Below the pieces are notes generated by a model. It did no database searches. It saw only the letters and a program-made list of their open reading frames with translations, and had not been told where the DNA came from. The translations under genes were made by a program, and so were the position numbers. DNA of 62,578 nt, counting the filler, from Globobulimina sp. (Eukaryota), in NCBI GenBank assembly GCA_003354225.1. It is 40 parts of 40 records of this genome, joined end to end, with 100 filler letters (N's around TTAATTAATTAA, not from the genome) between each part and the next. Parts side by side here need not be neighbours in the genome. Positions count along the whole stretch, not along the records: positions 28,220 to 29,686 come from PIVH01016216.1; 39 more parts are not named here. One strand, given 5' to 3'. Shown one piece after another: positions 1,569-45,593 of the stretch. Within the stretch, counting starts at the first letter, position 1, and each line of letters begins with the position of its first letter.

Positions 1569-2829
1569 CGAGGCCATCATCAATGTAAATAAAATGTATG
1601 TATCCTTTGGCCCGCCAGTGTGCCAAAACAGGTTTAAGCAACTTAGTAACTAACCGGGGAACTGGGGACAAGCCAAATGGACAAACCATAAATTGCGCGT
1701 AAATTTTTTGTCCCTGTAAATCGAAAGAGAAACCTAAATATTTTTGAAATTCAGGGGCTATTGGAACATGGTGGAACCAGCTCTTTAAATCGTATGTAAA
1801 CGCAAACCCATTCACTGGAAAATAGGGGGCGGCCGTTTGCAAAGTATCCATACGAAAAGACTGCTTATAAATATAAGTATTGACAGTCGACAAGTCCAAA
1901 ATTAGGCGCTTCTTACCCGAGCGCTGCTGCACAGCAACCTGCAGTGGACTAACACAATGAGGCACATAAGGGACAATTTTTGCAAATCCATTACGTAAAA
2001 GTCCCGCGATTTCGTGGAGCACAAAATCGGGGTGAGCATTAGCGGTACCATTATTTTTCCGAAATAAATTTGGTGGGTTAGAAATAAAAGGAATACGATA
2101 ACCCGAAGTAATAACATCTTGCACAAATTTAGGAGCCCCAATACGCTGCCAAGCTTTAATAGAACGGGCTAAAGACCCATCAATTGGTAAAAAAGGGATC
2201 TGATCCCATTGCGGTTGCAACCAACTTAGCAACACATCACTCGTGCACCTCGGCAAATCCCGACTCCGACTGTCAGAGCCACAAACACAACTCAAAATAT
2301 CACACCCATCAGAAACAACAGACTTACTTGAAAGTACACTAATATGGTCGTTTGGTATCCCGACCTCTGGCATAGGGATATTGTCGGTTTTGCGGACAGT
2401 CTCTTGCATAATGATCGGTTTGGGAGCATTTGAAACAGCCAGACTGGGCTTTTCCCCCAATTTGGGAACGGTTGTCATAGCGGTCGCCTCTGCGCTCATC
2501 GCGCCTGCCAGATGAGAAACGTTGCTGATTCCAGCGCTGATTGGAACGACGCTTTTTGTCGGTTTCTTGTTGTTGATCGGCGAGGAGCTCCTTGTGAAGC
2601 TTGGTGTACTTCTTTTTCTCGGATTCATTTTCGAAGGCTGGTGGGATTCGCGCAGCCGCGACCACCTTGAATCCAAGTTGAAATTCGTCCGCCATTCGGA
2701 TTTCTTTGAGGAGGGTGGCAACTGTCCGAGCGGCCGACATGGTTTCTTTCGCGAAATCTTCGGAGGTGCCATCCAGAATCGATAATAAAGGAAGCAAAAC
2801 AGGGTACAGCTCTTCGTATCTGGCAGCAC
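1569..2829 (-). CDS. pol: Reverse transcriptase, DIRS/PAT-like (3' partial)
   Basis: GYRIPF, VSPLQV, GKKRLILDLSTVN, YDLKSWFHHV, KYLGFSF, PFGLSPVPRLVTKLLKP and catalytic YIDD. Confidence 0.93.
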
Positions 2830-3036
2830 AGACAGGTTTCTTGAATTTGAGCTGATCCGGCGATATACAAAGCTTTTTCAAACGTTCGGCAAGAGTAAAG
2901 GCGGTTTCTTCAGGATGGTCGAAGACCGCAGAATCGGGGGAACTAGAACGGTTAAGCTGCGATTTGACGACAGAGAGTTCTTCACGTAAAGCGACGACTT
3001 CTTCTTCAAGAGTCAGAGTAGCTGATGAAGTAGGAA
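2339..3036 (-). CDS. gag: Gag-like protein with CCHC zinc knuckle (5' partial)
   Basis: The frame is open to the contig end. CFKCSQTDHYARDC fits CX2CX4HX4C. KEIRMADEFQLGFKVV..ESEKKKY resembles gags of animal DIRS/Ngaro-like elements. Confidence 0.82.
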
Positions 3037-28119: not shown

Positions 28120-28402
28120 NNNNNNNNNNNNNNNNNNNNNNNNNNNNNNNNNNNNNNNNNNNNTTAATTAATTAANNNNNNNNNNNNNNNNNNNNNNNNN
28201 NNNNNNNNNNNNNNNNNNNCTACCGTTTCCCCAACTAACGTCATTCAGGCCGTTTCCCTTGGGCCAGGTTTTGGTTTGGGCTCTGAGCTCTACAATTGCT
28301 ATACTTTTGTTATCCTTGGGTTTACATTCATATTGTATGAGCCCACCCTCCCCACCCCATTAATGCATGCCCATTGACGTAAAAACAATCTGTGTTTTTT
28401 AG

Positions 28403-29391
28403 ATATATTCTCTGTCGGTTTTTGGGCTTCTGAGCCTAGCAATTCTATGCAACGTTTGACTGCCCAGTTAAAAGTTACCCTTCTCACCAGCAAGGCTCCC
28501 CGGACTGTCAATACATATGCTCGGGCATTTGGACATTTTAAATCTTTTGCTGCTGCTCATTCCTTTTGTTGTATTCCGGTCGATCCTATCCAAGCAGCCT
28601 TATATCTACAACATGTGTTGAATTCAGCATCATCGGTATCTACTGTGTCTACTGCTCTTTATGGCATTGACTGGGCACACCGTTTGTGTGGTTTCACTGG
28701 TCCAGCTCAGCATGAGTTTTGTCGCGCTGTTTTGGAATCGGCGCGCCGGCGCTTTGGCTCTGCATCTAATGGCAAAACGGCTGCCAATGATCAGGTCTTA
28801 CAAGCGTTGTATGCTGACTGTTCTGGATCCTCCAGTCTCTTATCCTGGCGTACCTTTTTGGTCTCCCTAATAATGTTTGCTGGCTGCTTACGTTGGGATG
28901 AGATTAGTGGTTTAACTCCTGCCGATTTTACATGTACTGATCAATGTTTATTATTGTTCATTCACAAACGCAAAAACGATCAACATAAGCATGGTCAGCG
29001 AGTTCCCTTGGCTGCTACTGGTACCGTACTTTGCCCGGTCAGGAGTTTTCGGAAGTTCTGTGCATTGGCATCAATCGCCATTCCATCACCTGATTCCATA
29101 CATCCTTTCTTTTGTAATATATCTGGTCACTCCTTCAATACAAAACCACTGAGCTATTCGAACCATTTATCGCTGGTCCGCGACTGTATTGGCCGTCACT
29201 CATCGATCGATCCCAGAACAATTGGCACACATTCGTTTCGCAGTGGTGGTGCATCTGCTTTGATAGAAAATGGTGTGGATCCTAATGCCATCCGCGAATT
29301 TGGTGGATGGAAATCTGAACGCTCCATGGATCGCTATTTGCGCCGTTCCACCACCACTAAACTAGCTACATCAGCTCGAATGGGATTGTGA
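28403..29391 (+). CDS. Tyrosine recombinase of a DIRS/Ngaro/PAT-like retroelement (probable spliced 3' exon)
   Basis: T..TY..AF..F core-binding helix, catalytic R (GCLRWDE), K (KNDQ), HSFR, GGW and DRY. Confidence 0.92.
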
Positions 29392-30091
29392 TTCTATTTG
29401 TCTTCTTTTTGTATCATCATTATGTTTTTACATACCATGTTAACGTTATTACTGTTTTTTATACCAAAACCTGGCAGTTCCCCTGGCCCGTTCTTCACCT
29501 AATTCTCACCTATCATGCTTGTTAATAAAATGTGCTATTTTATTCCATTTCGTTTACACTCGTTGTGTAGTAGAGACACAAAGCGGTTTAGACCGTAGTT
29601 TACGAAGGTCTAATGGATGTTTGTGTTCTGCTATTTTCATATCTACTTTGATAGTTGAAATTGTCATTGTTCCTTTTCCAAAAACCNNNNNNNNNNNNNN
29701 NNNNNNNNNNNNNNNNNNNNNNNNNNNNNNTTAATTAATTAANNNNNNNNNNNNNNNNNNNNNNNNNNNNNNNNNNNNNNNNNNNNTGATAAAGAAAGTT
29801 GGAGGACAAAGTAAAAGTAGATTGAAAGTAAAAACTTGATTCAGAAGTTAATAAATGCGCAACACTATGAGTTTATAATGGAGAAGAAGAAGGCTAAGAC
29901 AAACACAGTAATGTTAATGATGAGTCTGACTCTGACTTTTCTGGTAATACAAATTTTGAAAAACCTAAATTTATTGAAACCTGGTCAACACACAATTCAT
30001 TCAAAACAAATCACACTTCATCGTATAGATAATACATATATAAATATAATATATAAGGACAGCAATATATACTCATCGAAAAACTATATAA

Positions 30092-37521: not shown

Positions 37522-39482
37522 NNNNNNNNNNNNNNNNNNNNNNNNNNNNNNNNNNNNNNNNNNNNTTAATTAATTAANNNNNNNNNNNNNNNNNNNNNNN
37601 NNNNNNNNNNNNNNNNNNNNNGCATACTTTGATAAAAAAGAAATAGACAGATAGTAGTAGAGGATTTTATATGTTTGTTAAACGGTACACAGAGAGTAAA
37701 ACACTCATTTTGCATATCCGTAAATATAAAATGGTCTCTGTCTACAAATCCAACATAAAAAGGAATAAAAAGAGGAGAATAGGTATTATTTATTAAGGGG
37801 TTAATAATTAAAAATGGCAAATAATTTCATAGTTAACGCAAGCTTTCGTTCGTTTAATATTCTTAATACGGTCCTCATTCTGCGCTTGTTTATCTTTCTG
37901 AATATTTTGGGGGGAATTCTTTTGATTTGATTGGTTCTTATTTCTTTTACTGATGACTGGCGGCGAGGGATACTGTGATAATTTGAGGGATTCTTTAAAC
38001 TTTTCAATTAATGGAGGGAAGTGGCCATCCGATTTTGTAAATGTATTGGAATGTTAGGGCGGAACAGCGCTTTTAAACTGTGGTTTATTGTCATTATTTG
38101 GAGGGGGATTAACTGTCATTTCCCAATCTAATTTATAAAAGAACATAGCGCGTAATCTGAATACTTTAATCACAAATTCTTTAAATGGGCTGTTCCAACT
38201 CGGATTTTGATTGATTTTACATAATTCGCCAATGAATCTAACTATAATATTACGATAAATCAATAAAGTCATTCGTATGGAATAATCGCTGCAAATCTTT
38301 CGGTACATTCATGCGTTGCTGCTGCGATGGTCTTAATTTAAGTTTGATATTATTCCTCATCTCGTTTCTATTGGCAGTGTTTGATTGGTTGGCTTGATTG
38401 CATGTGTTGGTTACGTTTGGTTTGCTCATTGAACTCTTTTGTGCCATGCGATAATGCGTATACGTATTTGTTGTGCGATAATGCGGCTCTGTATATTGTA
38501 CATTATTTATTATGGGCTTTGCTATAATAAGGGGAGGATTTATTGTTTTATTTTTATTATCATTATTTATATCATTTATTTGTTGGGTATATATTGCATT
38601 TATTTCCTTAGTTTCGTGTCTATAGTCTGTCTCTTTTGCCGAGGCAATTTCGAGTATCGACAGACTACCTTTTATTAGTTTCTTTGTTTTGGAAGTAAAC
38701 ACCGAAAGATGCGAAATAAAAATGCGAGAGTTATGGTCCTAGTGGGGAGTAGAAAATTGATTTCTTAAGTTTTGAAGATGCAATCAACTACCAACTCGAG
38801 TGTTTTTTTTTCATTGCCGCATTTCACGTACGTTATTAAAAAAAATATAACTGAATTATAAAACAAGAATTATCTCAAAAAAAAAAGAAAGAAAATTTAT
38901 AATACAACAAAACCAAAATAATACGTACATATAAATATAATTTACAAATTTTAATTCAACAAAACGATTTTACAAATTTTTTTTTAATTTTTTTGCCCCA
39001 ATACATATATCTTTCTTTTACATAATTAAACAATGATTATACAATACACTTTACTGAACACCTTCTAAGCTCGCACTTTTAACAGCACNNNNNNNNNNNN
39101 NNNNNNNNNNNNNNNNNNNNNNNNNNNNNNNNTTAATTAATTAANNNNNNNNNNNNNNNNNNNNNNNNNNNNNNNNNNNNNNNNNNNNGATTGGTATGAT
39201 TTTCTCTTCTCTAAACTCTTATAGTCTGTTCGAAATTGATTCGAAAACGACATCAAATCACTTTTAAGAGTTGTACATTATTATTTAGCATACATGCATT
39301 TACCTCTATTAATTTATGAAATGTTCAAAAGCATACAGTATGCATCTGAAGAACGATAACGGAATATATGTAATACATGAAAAATACAACAAACGGATAA
39401 GGAAAATCATAATTTTTTAACAAAATCGTAATAGTTCAATTCCGACTCCATGGCAGACCAGAATATGATTTCAGCCAACAGG

Positions 39483-40477
39483 CTACAGTCCCATACTGGC
39501 CGAAGTATTCAATTTAGTAGTAGCCGAACGACGTAAATAACAATCCATGGAACGCTCCGAACGCCAGCCACCAAATTCACGAATTGAATTAGGGTCCACT
39601 CCATGTTCAATGAGCGCGGTCGCACCACCAGAGCGAAACGAGTGTAATCCAAACATTTTAGGGTCCAGTGAGGTATGACGACCGATGGCAACACGGACCA
39701 AATGGAGGTGATTAGAATAGGTGAGAGGGCGATCATTGAGACGTTTTCCAGATATATTACGAAATAGAAGAGTGGGAGCAGCCACATTAGGTGTAAGCAT
39801 GATTGAGGCCAATTTACAATAATGACGAAGTGCCTGAACAGGGCACAAATCAGAGCCAGTAGCAGCCATAAAGACTTTCATGCCAACTTTGTGTTGATCG
39901 TTTTTTCGCTGTCGAATCAGTAACAGAACAGAGGTATCAGTGCACTCCACATCTCGAACAGATAATGCAGAGACCTCTGCCCAGCGTAGACAGCCAGCAA
40001 ACATCATAAGTGACACTACGAAAGTTCTCCATGGCAAAAGATCGGAAGAGACCTTGCAATCAGCATATAGGGCATGGAGAATGGAAGTATCTGCCGCCAC
40101 TTTAGCATGAGAAGCCGTTCCAAACTGGCGACGGGCAGATTCCACCACATTTTTGCATAAACCACTGGAAGCAGGACCCGGAAGTTCACACAAACGATGG
40201 GCCCAGTCAATACCGTACAGAGCGGCATTAACAGTTGCAACAGACGCAGCTGTATTGAGAACATTTTGAAGGTATAGAGCCACAGACAGGGAGTCAGCTG
40301 GAAGGGCCGAAAAACCATGGGAAGCTGCGAAAACTTTGAATAGGGAAAATGCCCGAGCATACATTTCGACAGTACGAGGTGCTTTACTGTACAATAAAGT
40401 AGTTTGCAGTTGGACACGAAGGTTCAATAGTGAAGGAGGGGTATTGGTAGACGCCCAAGTACCACAAGCAAAAACAT
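39483..40477 (-). CDS. Tyrosine recombinase, diverged paralogue of 28403-29391 (probable spliced 3' exon)
   Basis: SKAPRTV.MY.RAF, YGIDWAHRLC, GCLRWAE, KNDQ, HSFRSGGA, GGWRSERSMDCY; both proteins end MGL. Confidence 0.92.
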
Positions 40478-40945
40478 CTGAAATCAGAAAAACTGCATAC
40501 AGTATACAGAGTATGTAAAAAGGGTGGGAGGGCGGGCCCAAGCAAAATATAAAATTTGAGTATACAAAAACGTAAGAAAACTGTTTAGAAACCAAGCCCA
40601 AACCTGGCCGAAAGAGGGGAAAAGCCTGAATGACTAGAAGCGGCGAGAGCGCCGNNNNNNNNNNNNNNNNNNNNNNNNNNNNNNNNNNNNNNNNNNNNTT
40701 AATTAATTAANNNNNNNNNNNNNNNNNNNNNNNNNNNNNNNNNNNNNNNNNNNNAGCTCGTACACTTAGGCACTATACTCTTCATGTTCAGAAATGGTAA
40801 TAGCAATATATGCCAAATCGAAATTTCGAGTTTTTAATTTCAGGTCCGACCGATTATTAATGGTCGAGTTATGACTATTTCTATACTTTCTATACTTTCT
40901 ACGCATATTAACACATTTTCGTCTTTGTTTCGAATTTATGGTTAG

Positions 40946-40986
40946 GAATTCACGGTCCGGAATTTACGGTCCGGAATTTACGGTCA
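40946..40986 (+). repeat. Three tandem copies of 14-bp GGAATT(C/T)ACGGTC(C/A)
   Basis: Directly visible. Confidence 0.85.
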
Positions 40987-41123
40987 GAAAGTTATATAAC
41001 AATGATAAGTGATACCACAGGTAAAAGTTCCAATTTAAATATCAAATATACGCCTTAACCGTAATCTGCATGAACATATTGTACTCCGTGCTCTGAATGA
41101 TATCCGTTTCGATACATATCTAC

Positions 41124-41972
41124 GACTATTGGAAAACTGACTGACTATGACGATCGTTTGACTATGCCTTTGGACTTTGGCTATTGGAAAACTGTTTGAC
41201 TATGACTTTGAACATTGACTATTGGAAAAACTGGATGTTTGACCACGACTTCGGGCTATTGGAAAACTGTTTGACACTGACGATCGTTTGACTAGGACTT
41301 TGGACTTCGGCTATTGGAAAACAGCTTGACTATGGCGGCCGTTTGACTATGCCTTTGGACTTCGACTATTAAGGTTGAATGACTATGACTTTGGACTTTG
41401 ACTATTGAAAAACTGATCGTTTGATTATGACTTTGACTATTGGAAATCTATTTGACTATAACGATAGGTAGACTAGGACTTTGGACTTTGACTATTGGAA
41501 AAACTGTTTGATTCTGACGGTCGTTTGACTAGACTTTGGACTTTGACTATTGAAAAACTGTTTGACTATTACGGTTGTTTGACTATGACTTTGGACTTTA
41601 ACTATTGAAAAACTGTTCGTTTGACTATGACTTTAACTATTGGAAAACTGATTGACTATGACTTTGGACATTGACAATTGGAAAACTGTTTGACTATGAC
41701 TTTGGACACTGGCTATTGGAAAAAATGTCGTACGACTATGACTTTGGACTTTGACTATTGGAAAACTGTTTGACTCTGACGGTTGTTTGACTACGACTTT
41801 AAACTTTGACTATTGGAAAACTATTTGACTCTGGCGATCGTTTGACCACGACTTTGGACTTTGACTATTGAAAAAACTGTTTGATTATTACGATCGTTTG
41901 ACTATGCCTTTAGACTTTGGCTATTGGAAAACTACTCGTTCGACTACGACATCGACTATCGGAAAGCTGTTT
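41124..41972. repeat. Modular minisatellite built from GACTAT-initiated units (about 19 GACTATTGGAAAACTGTTT-type units plus interleaved variants)
   Basis: Parsed by eye into four related subunits; no ORF of 60 aa or more in the track. Confidence 0.93.
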
Positions 41973-42320
41973 TAAAACCATTTTACCAAAGGCCAGTGTA
42001 AATGTCATCTTTTTTCGACGTTTTTATGTAAAAATCTCTGAAATAATTGAGAATCTGAACATATTTTAACATAAATTAGTAATGTTCTTCAACAAATTAT
42101 GGGTAACAATTGAATTTTAGGAAAACTATGAGACTTTCTGTATAACCGATCAGTTATAGTATATTGCGATTAAATTACCTGAAAAGATACTATGATTTGG
42201 ATGAAGTTCAACCCAAAATANNNNNNNNNNNNNNNNNNNNNNNNNNNNNNNNNNNNNNNNNNNNTTAATTAATTAANNNNNNNNNNNNNNNNNNNNNNNN
42301 NNNNNNNNNNNNNNNNNNNN

Positions 42321-45492: not shown

Positions 45493-45593
45493 GACCCGAA
45501 ACCAGACCCGAAACATCTTTTACTAACCCGAGCCCGGCCCGACCCGAAATTAGTCAATATTGACCCGACCCAGAGTGTCCAAAAACCGACCCG
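45493..45593 (+). repeat. Cluster of (G)ACCCG motifs, likely subterminal repeats of a truncated DNA transposon
   Basis: About eight ACCCG-like motifs in 100 bp, ending abruptly at the TIR element. Confidence 0.6.

Follow-up and report, generated by a model that had tools for sequence, protein, structure and literature searches.

Two homologous intervals, belonging to copies A and B of a tyrosine-recombinase gene in a 62,578-nucleotide stretch of the Globobulimina sp. assembly GCA_003354225.1 (hereafter the window), probably each represent the last ~160 nt of an intron, a 3' splice site and the first recombinase codons of a PAT-like element, preserved in two anciently diverged lineages. The recombinase open reading frame (ORF) would lack a start codon of its own; its translation would depend on a subgenomic mRNA made by splicing an upstream exon, in phase 1, to an acceptor of the form YAG|AT. 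Judging from complete relatives, exon 1 would consist of the first ~80-105 codons of gag and end in G|GTGAG, the intron would contain the remainder of gag and the whole of pol, and the last G of exon 1 would restore the conserved Asp codon of the recombinase.

The window is composed of 40 unrelated contigs of 1466-1468 nt each, ordered by size and separated by N44-TTAATTAATTAA-N44 spacers; the two recombinase genes are therefore not neighbours. Their contigs are richer in G+C than most of the others in the window (~30-35%), and both start exactly 20 nt ahead of GTCATTCAGGC; the contig ends are reached 181 nt (copy A) and 175 nt (copy B) upstream of the recombinase exon (Table 1). Neither contig carries a reverse transcriptase (RT), a gag gene or a repeat, and the upstream exon would lie off both. 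Gag and part of an RT occur on a separate contig, whose RT shares 45% identity with that of the complete PAT-like relative L003; its gag, the only one in the window, could not be aligned with the L003 gag (E 7.8), and no good splice donor was found in the part that is present (best score 0.57). Other contigs of the window contain eukaryote-type ORFs, for example those of a proteasome-like AAA ATPase, a JmjC protein and a sugar transporter.

Table 1. Positions along the window of the two recombinase copies, their upstream elements and the separate gag-RT contig
Feature	Position	Strand	Remarks
Contig of copy A	28220-29686	+	G+C 0.43-0.44 for A and B contigs
Conserved non-coding block, copy A	28220-28338	+	Contig 5' end; no ATG
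GTCATTCAGGC	28240-28250 (copy A); 40634-40624 (copy B)	+ (A); - (B)	Read directly
GGCCAGGTTT	28262-28271 (copy A); 40609-40600 (copy B)	+ (A); - (B)	Within the conserved block
C-run of copy A, CCCACCCTCCCCACCCC	28342-28358	+	Opposite strand reads GGGGTGGGGAGGGTGGG
Polypyrimidine tract and TAG, copy A	28389-28402	+	Predicted 3' splice site, AG at 28401-28402; exon from 28403, phase 1
Tyrosine-recombinase exon, copy A	28403-29391	+	Pfam Phage_integrase, E 1.5e-10; ORF intact
3' block of copy A in several sequence contexts	29494-29640	+	From the source run; unlike the copy B 3' flank
Contig of copy B	39189-40654	-	G+C 0.43-0.44 for A and B contigs
Conserved non-coding block, copy B	40537-40654	-	No ATG
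C-run of copy B, CCCGCCCTCCCACCC	40522-40536	-	+ strand reads GGGTGGGAGGGCGGG
Polypyrimidine tract and CAG, copy B	40478-40493	-	Predicted 3' splice site, AG at 40479-40478; exon from 40477, phase 1
Tyrosine-recombinase exon, copy B	39483-40477	-	Pfam Phage_integrase, E 1.7e-10
Contig with gag (zinc knuckle) and N-terminal part of RT	1569-3036	-	Same element kind as PAT-like
Gag with zinc knuckle	2344-3034	-	zf-CCHC, E 3.9e-6
Reverse transcriptase, N-terminal part	1570-2877	-	RVT_1, E 7.8e-8

Both recombinase ORFs are intact over 329-331 codons and match the same Pfam family (PF00589), and their proteins are 62% identical over 332 residues (BLASTP). The residues R172, K199, H285, R288, W311 and Y320 were invariant in an alignment of five family members. 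Identity between the two copies amounts to 64%, 79% and 42% at codon positions 1, 2 and 3, and falls to 36% at fourfold sites, where 30% would be expected at random. The NG86 method gave a dN of 0.33 and a dS of 3.4 (ratio 0.10), and LWL85 a dN/dS of 0.19; dS was above 1.8. These low ratios, together with the saturation of synonymous sites, show that the two copies are old lineages and that both are under purifying selection at the protein level. The family to which they belong is large (7460 representatives at E up to 0.001); a scan of viral contigs returned two weak partial matches only, and a scan of prokaryote genomes returned five weak matches, in metagenome-assembled genomes. The DUF3504 profile matched neither ORF (E up to 0.1).

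No in-frame ATG is found in either copy ahead of the conserved D-[IV]-F...G.W start, in agreement with the original prediction that the two genes share no ATG. In copy A, where the Asp codon is read from 28402 and the stop codon occupies 29389-29391, an in-frame TGA lies at 28375-28377, 8 codons ahead of this Asp, and in copy B the recombinase frame continues upstream without a stop for 58 codons, as far as the contig end.

A metagenome scan for relatives of the recombinase yielded 80 loci, 24 of which cover the protein N-terminus. At 17 of these 24 loci homology begins at the motif D[IVA]F..G.W, and after collapsing they are represented by nine distinct upstream sequences (L001, L008, the L002 family, L007, L035, L041, L052, L020 and L043). 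Where homology starts, all nine, like copies A and B (11/11), have a YAG preceded by a pyrimidine tract and no in-frame ATG, the acceptor of L043 being displaced by 1 nt. The misfits among the 24 loci comprise five in which the ORF continues upstream without the D[IV]F motif (L019, L026, L028, L030 and L050), one with a stop codon in the aligned N-terminus (L054) and one without an AG (L006). In further relatives, the predicted proteins have a short stretch enriched in F, L, C and S immediately before the motif, which is how a translated pyrimidine tract would look. This comparison shows that the predicted 3' splice-site acceptor is conserved across relatives, and since copies A and B share this acceptor, it supports splicing to an exon further upstream. 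Transcription initiating at the AG was also considered and rejected, as it would leave the conserved D-I-F...W residues untranslated.

The complete relatives point to a donor for this acceptor within gag. In L003, a gag gene encoding a zinc knuckle is followed by RT/RNase H (weak Dam-like match) and, 275 nt further on, by the recombinase; the same pol-recombinase order is seen in L008, and split direct repeats of the form A1...B1-A2-B2 lie downstream of the recombinase in L002, L020 and L035. At codons 102/103 of the L003 gag, the sequence reads GATAAAG|GTGAGAGT, so that exon 1 counted from the gag ATG would measure 307 nt (3n+1) and the acceptor exon would open at the second base of the Asp codon, giving an in-frame conceptual join (...KESLDK|DVFQKGLW). 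At the homologous codon of gag, AAAG|GTGAG is found in L003/L035, L020 and L039/L041, GATG|GTGAG in L066 and GAAG|GTATGG in L036; the L045 gag has no GT at the aligned site, and a candidate phase-1 donor is thus present in five of six gag lineages, down to ~30% Gag identity. All four loci with an intact gag ATG (L003, L017, L035 and L020) gave an in-frame gag-recombinase join, with predicted introns of 2712-2889 nt. In the complete PAT-like relatives, the comparison therefore shows a conserved putative donor and matching reading phases.

Two predicted RefSeq models from the hemichordate Saccoglossus kowalevskii, XP_077866782.1 and XP_077862362.1, place ~104 Gag-like residues before the motif DVFQIQ[ND]W. 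In the former, 104 Gag-like residues ending in ...DALEK are joined directly to DVFQIQNW, and the N-terminus aligns to residues 19-101 of the L003 gag; the latter has nine extra residues between the Gag-like part and the motif. Although they are gene predictions, these models independently support a fusion of the Gag N-terminus to the recombinase. Both are named "integrase/recombinase xerD homolog". The acceptors, the gag donor of relatives and these predicted fusions thus give good comparative support to the original prediction that splicing from an upstream exon underlies recombinase expression. For the organism that carries copies A and B we infer the splice itself, as well as the use by both copies of the same upstream exon as in their relatives, beyond the ends of their contigs. 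No RNA run was among those listed as containing the sequence.

The region upstream of the acceptor is itself conserved between the two copies. Within 180 nt upstream, 115 of 171 positions are identical (67%; z ~8 against shuffles), with an alignment score of 24.5 versus -27.7 ± 6.5 in shuffled sequences. Similarity of the proteins starts at the AG, as originally described, with the BLASTP alignment beginning at DIFSVGFW in copy A and DVFACGTW in copy B, whereas that of the nucleotides begins further upstream. Identity is distributed unevenly: 69/94 at contig positions 21-122, about 14 of 15 positions in the C-run, 8/20 in the first 20 nt of the contigs, and 14/44 (ungapped) between the C-run and the AG; the 3' flanks (295 nt past the stop codon) align no better than shuffled sequence. 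Mismatches in the upstream region are spread evenly over the codon phases (23/57, 21/58 and 23/57; p 0.87), and the block can be aligned through to the acceptor only with indels of 4 and 1 nt. This lack of codon periodicity and these indels indicate that an overlapping ORF does not account for the conservation. The same lack of periodicity, along with frames that differ between A and B, speaks against proline codons of an overlapping frame as the source of the C-run, an origin that the original prediction had named as contrary to its reading. With 67% identity against 36% at fourfold sites, the upstream ~160 nt are truly constrained, non-coding sequence.

This constraint appears to be confined to the lineage of copies A and B. 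None of 16 comparisons of the A/B upstream block with distant relatives stood clearly above shuffles, and the best, copy A versus L041, was equalled by 5 of 200 shuffles. We therefore regard GTCATTCAGGC, GGCCAGGTTT and the C-run as putative lineage-specific non-coding elements under purifying selection, located in what would be the pol-recombinase spacer. Most likely they act in cis; our guesses are that they influence how much of the RNA is spliced, or replication. Two more specific roles were rejected: GTCATTCAGGC is a poor match to a splice donor and its frames do not fit, and long-range pairing of the block with the 3' flank, suggested in copy A by a 13-nt perfect inverted repeat (found in 1/500 shuffles), has no counterpart in copy B.

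Several other readings of the missing start codon deserve consideration. Without splicing, the recombinase could be the tail of an upstream ORF reached by read-through or frameshift, or could begin at a non-AUG codon just upstream. An in-frame CTG stands 5 codons (copy A) and 3 codons (copy B) ahead of the Asp, the frame of copy B is open from the contig start, that of copy A is interrupted by its single TGA only, and tblastn extended the A/B alignment upstream in the same frame. We nevertheless consider this very unlikely, because the upstream mismatches have the even phase distribution and the indels described above, relatives have stops 7-25 codons upstream in the recombinase frame and no CTG common to them, and the conservation to the single nucleotide of the pyrimidine tract and YAG across lineages would be left unexplained. 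The absence of an ATG and the stop just upstream in copy A might also suggest dead relics, with upstream sequence shared merely through recent common descent. The intact ORFs, the dN/dS of 0.10-0.19 with dS above 1.8, and 3' flanks fully randomised next to a 67%-identical 5' block contradict this, and we give it almost no credence. It would also be conceivable that A and B are each a complete unit of ~1.47 kb that stems from PAT-like elements and encodes the recombinase alone, its acceptor capturing a host exon or a trans-spliced leader. Both contigs have the same homologous start and the same size, close relatives likewise occur on contigs of 1306-1451 nt, and both ends of the copy A contig are found in more sequence contexts than its ORF. 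However, equal size follows from the construction of the window, whose contigs are size-ordered; repeats are break points in short-read assemblies; the window also contains a gag-RT contig from this kind of element; and a leader would need to bring an ATG and one additional base in the right phase. Such units are in our view highly improbable, and a Gag-encoding first exon spliced to the recombinase remains the preferred reading.

The role of the C-run is a separate matter. In the original prediction, it was read as a template-strand G-quadruplex (G4), selected at a fixed distance of 44 nt from the acceptor and controlling splicing, transcription or reverse transcription. The coordinates of the motifs were all confirmed by direct reading, as was the spacing, which in both copies is 44 nt when counted from the final C of the run to the G of the acceptor AG. 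Four-run C3/G3 motifs are rare in this AT-rich sequence: the window contains three, at the two C-run sites and at 45527-45545, against a first-order Markov expectation of 0.08, and none of 300 runs produced a motif with 1-nt loops; on the A and B contigs, the two motifs occupy homologous sites, where 0.015 would be expected. The C-run has moreover been retained through saturated divergence. Four runs of at least three G with short loops are present on the antisense strand only, where a G4 is predicted in both copies, with G4Hunter scores of 2.5 (copy A) and 1.75 (copy B). Minimum free energies, predicted by ViennaRNA with RNA G4 parameters, were -37.4 with G4 allowed versus -14.4 without in copy A, and about -43 versus -12 in copy B. 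DIRS-1 is reported to amplify via single-stranded cDNA (PMC7192593). In an element of this kind the first-strand cDNA would be the G-rich strand.

Despite these points, we find the fixed-distance G4 an unlikely explanation. A four-run C or G motif was absent from the 260 nt upstream in all eight distinct distant relatives, which, as noted above, show no upstream similarity to the A/B block, and a third copy, on a contig of the source run, is shared up to 28338 and then turns into unrelated sequence, of which the first 30 nt contain no C-run. Because A and B are homologous, their equal spacing requires no more than a lack of net insertion or deletion and is predicted by descent alone, and only 14/44 positions between the C-run and the AG are identical. 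Furthermore, the pre-mRNA would be the C-rich strand, so a G4 could not act on splicing in RNA. Motif and spacing are thus conserved between copies A and B only, and a general G4-acceptor cassette is not supported by these comparisons as a feature of the family. As the C-run is among the best-kept pieces of the constrained block, it probably has some function in the A/B lineage, which may be tied to the acceptor. A broader account, in which the PAT-like DIRS group as a whole expresses a Gag-N-terminus fusion via a phase-1 splice and the C-rich element either tunes this splice or forms a cDNA G4 during replication, is in its entirety doubtful.

The ends of the copy A contig add a further aspect to the upstream block. 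In contigs of one DNA-like sample, summed Logan contig depth, which is not a copy number, reached 23-30 on 28220-28317 and 25-28 on 29494-29591, versus 6-11 over the ORF. Loose ends of copy A in the source run were located at 28338 (one) and between 29506 and 29622 (five). No repeats were found within contig A or within contig B. Such depth and loose ends would be in keeping with a recombinase lying between copies of split direct repeats, an arrangement that would also account for both contigs breaking at the same homologous base, and the blocks may then be an internal copy of the terminal split direct repeat. The depth pattern could equally reflect diverged subfamilies that share the conserved block. 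Internal repeats between pol and the recombinase are described for the nematode-form or Kangaroo layout (PMC4157794).

Among known systems, the closest are the PAT-like (Pat1-like, "echinoderm-form") DIRS elements. Copies A and B share 25-41% recombinase identity with the metagenome elements, which combine the order gag (zinc knuckle), RT/RNase H (weak Dam-like match) and recombinase with split direct repeats; this corresponds to the published PAT-like layout of the DIRS order (PMC4157794, PMC6681497). On this basis, copies A and B would belong to a DIRS-order tyrosine-recombinase retrotransposon of the PAT-like kind. They differ from their PAT-like relatives in the conserved upstream block, which has no counterpart there; if this block were an internal pol-recombinase repeat, a reading drawn from depth alone, the layout would instead resemble the "nematode-form" or Kangaroo elements (PMC4157794). 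Crypton DNA transposons are likewise eukaryotic, encode a tyrosine recombinase and sometimes have introns (PMC3212892, PMC13465315). An assignment to Crypton (CryptonA) was rejected, since the ORFs match Phage_integrase in place of DUF3504 and the nearest relatives with genomic context carry gag and RT.

The expression of DIRS-order recombinases is poorly known. The passages of open-access literature searched make no mention of a spliced recombinase in elements of this order, and neither "splic" nor "intron" occurs in a 2011 review of DIRS1-like elements; older papers on Pat, Ngaro or DIRS1 may have published the idea already. If our reading is correct, DIRS-order elements would use a retrovirus-like spliced subgenomic mRNA and produce a Gag-recombinase fusion. 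For annotators, this would provide a reason why such recombinase ORFs have no start codon, and it would account for many "xerD homolog" gene models of invertebrate genomes. The G4 part carries less weight, as it concerns a conserved non-coding element of one lineage. G-quadruplex motifs occur in retrotransposons, for example in the LINE-1 3' UTR and in plant LTRs. Copies A and B resemble those cases in that their G4-capable run falls within non-coding retroelement sequence, but here it is antisense, predicted, and limited to a single lineage. The proposed expression route has its closest parallel in retroviruses and env-bearing LTR elements, in which a start-less downstream ORF is reached by splicing out gag-pol, and which must regulate how much RNA is spliced and how much is left unspliced. 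In contrast to these elements, the downstream gene here is a recombinase and not env, and its predicted product would be a fusion with ~100 residues of Gag.

The window (1-62578) consists of 40 contigs of 1466-1468 nt each, ordered by length and separated by spacers of the form N44-TTAATTAATTAA-N44; any continuity of gene order that seems to span one of these spacers is an artefact. In both tyrosine-recombinase contigs (copies A and B), the conserved sequence GTCATTCAGGC starts exactly 20 nt inside the contig, from ends 28220 and 40654, and the close relatives of the two copies in public assemblies likewise lie on short contigs (1306-1451 nt). This shared 20-nt start, together with the length of the relatives' contigs, suggests a repeat boundary flanking the recombinase gene on either side, where assemblies break.

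Copy A also carries a perfect 13-nt inverted repeat, with one arm in the conserved GGCCAGGTTT block and the other in the 3' flank of the copy; it was matched by one of 500 shuffles, and a search for its counterpart in copy B found none. Besides those of copies A and B, the sole four-run C motif in the window was CCCGAGCCCGGCCCGACCC, on a contig with a G+C content of 0.40 and a 231-aa ORF without a Pfam match. The contig placed next to that of copy B in the window (40755-42220) has short tandem repeats at one end, with units including CCGTAAATTCCGGA-like and AGAAAGTATAG-like sequences, and its longest ORF reaches only 65 aa.

Positions of features in the window
Feature	Position	Strand	Content
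PAT-like element contig	1569-3036	-	gag with CCHC zinc knuckle and RT N-terminus
gag	2344-3034	-	CCHC zinc knuckle
RT N-terminus	1570-2877	-	overlaps gag in a different frame
Inverted repeat, copy A	28263-28275, 29463-29475		paired arms
Tandem repeats	40880-41000		
Four-run C motif	45527-45545		CCCGAGCCCGGCCCGACCC

The RT encoded on the PAT-like (DIRS-order) contig shares 45% identity with that of the metagenome element L003. Among the metagenome relatives of copies A and B, tandem repeats occupy the interval between pol and the predicted recombinase splice acceptor in loci L007 (909-1287) and L012 (2391-2644); the repeat unit is 54 nt long in L007 and 27 nt long in L012, and each array holds about six copies. 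In five other loci (L019, L026, L028, L030, and L050), the recombinase ORF remains open for at least 40 codons further upstream, and this extension contains a common VKGHKG stretch. Since these ORFs lack the D[IV]F start, their sequences indicate that the recombinase of this subgroup may be expressed in a different mode.

Predicted invertebrate proteins from Glandiceps talaboti (P0012, P0157) and Mytilus edulis (P0159) come from gene models in which the recombinase is fused to RT fragments or to fragments of both gag and RNase H; annotation pipelines render elements of the PAT-like type as multi-exon genes, in several ways.
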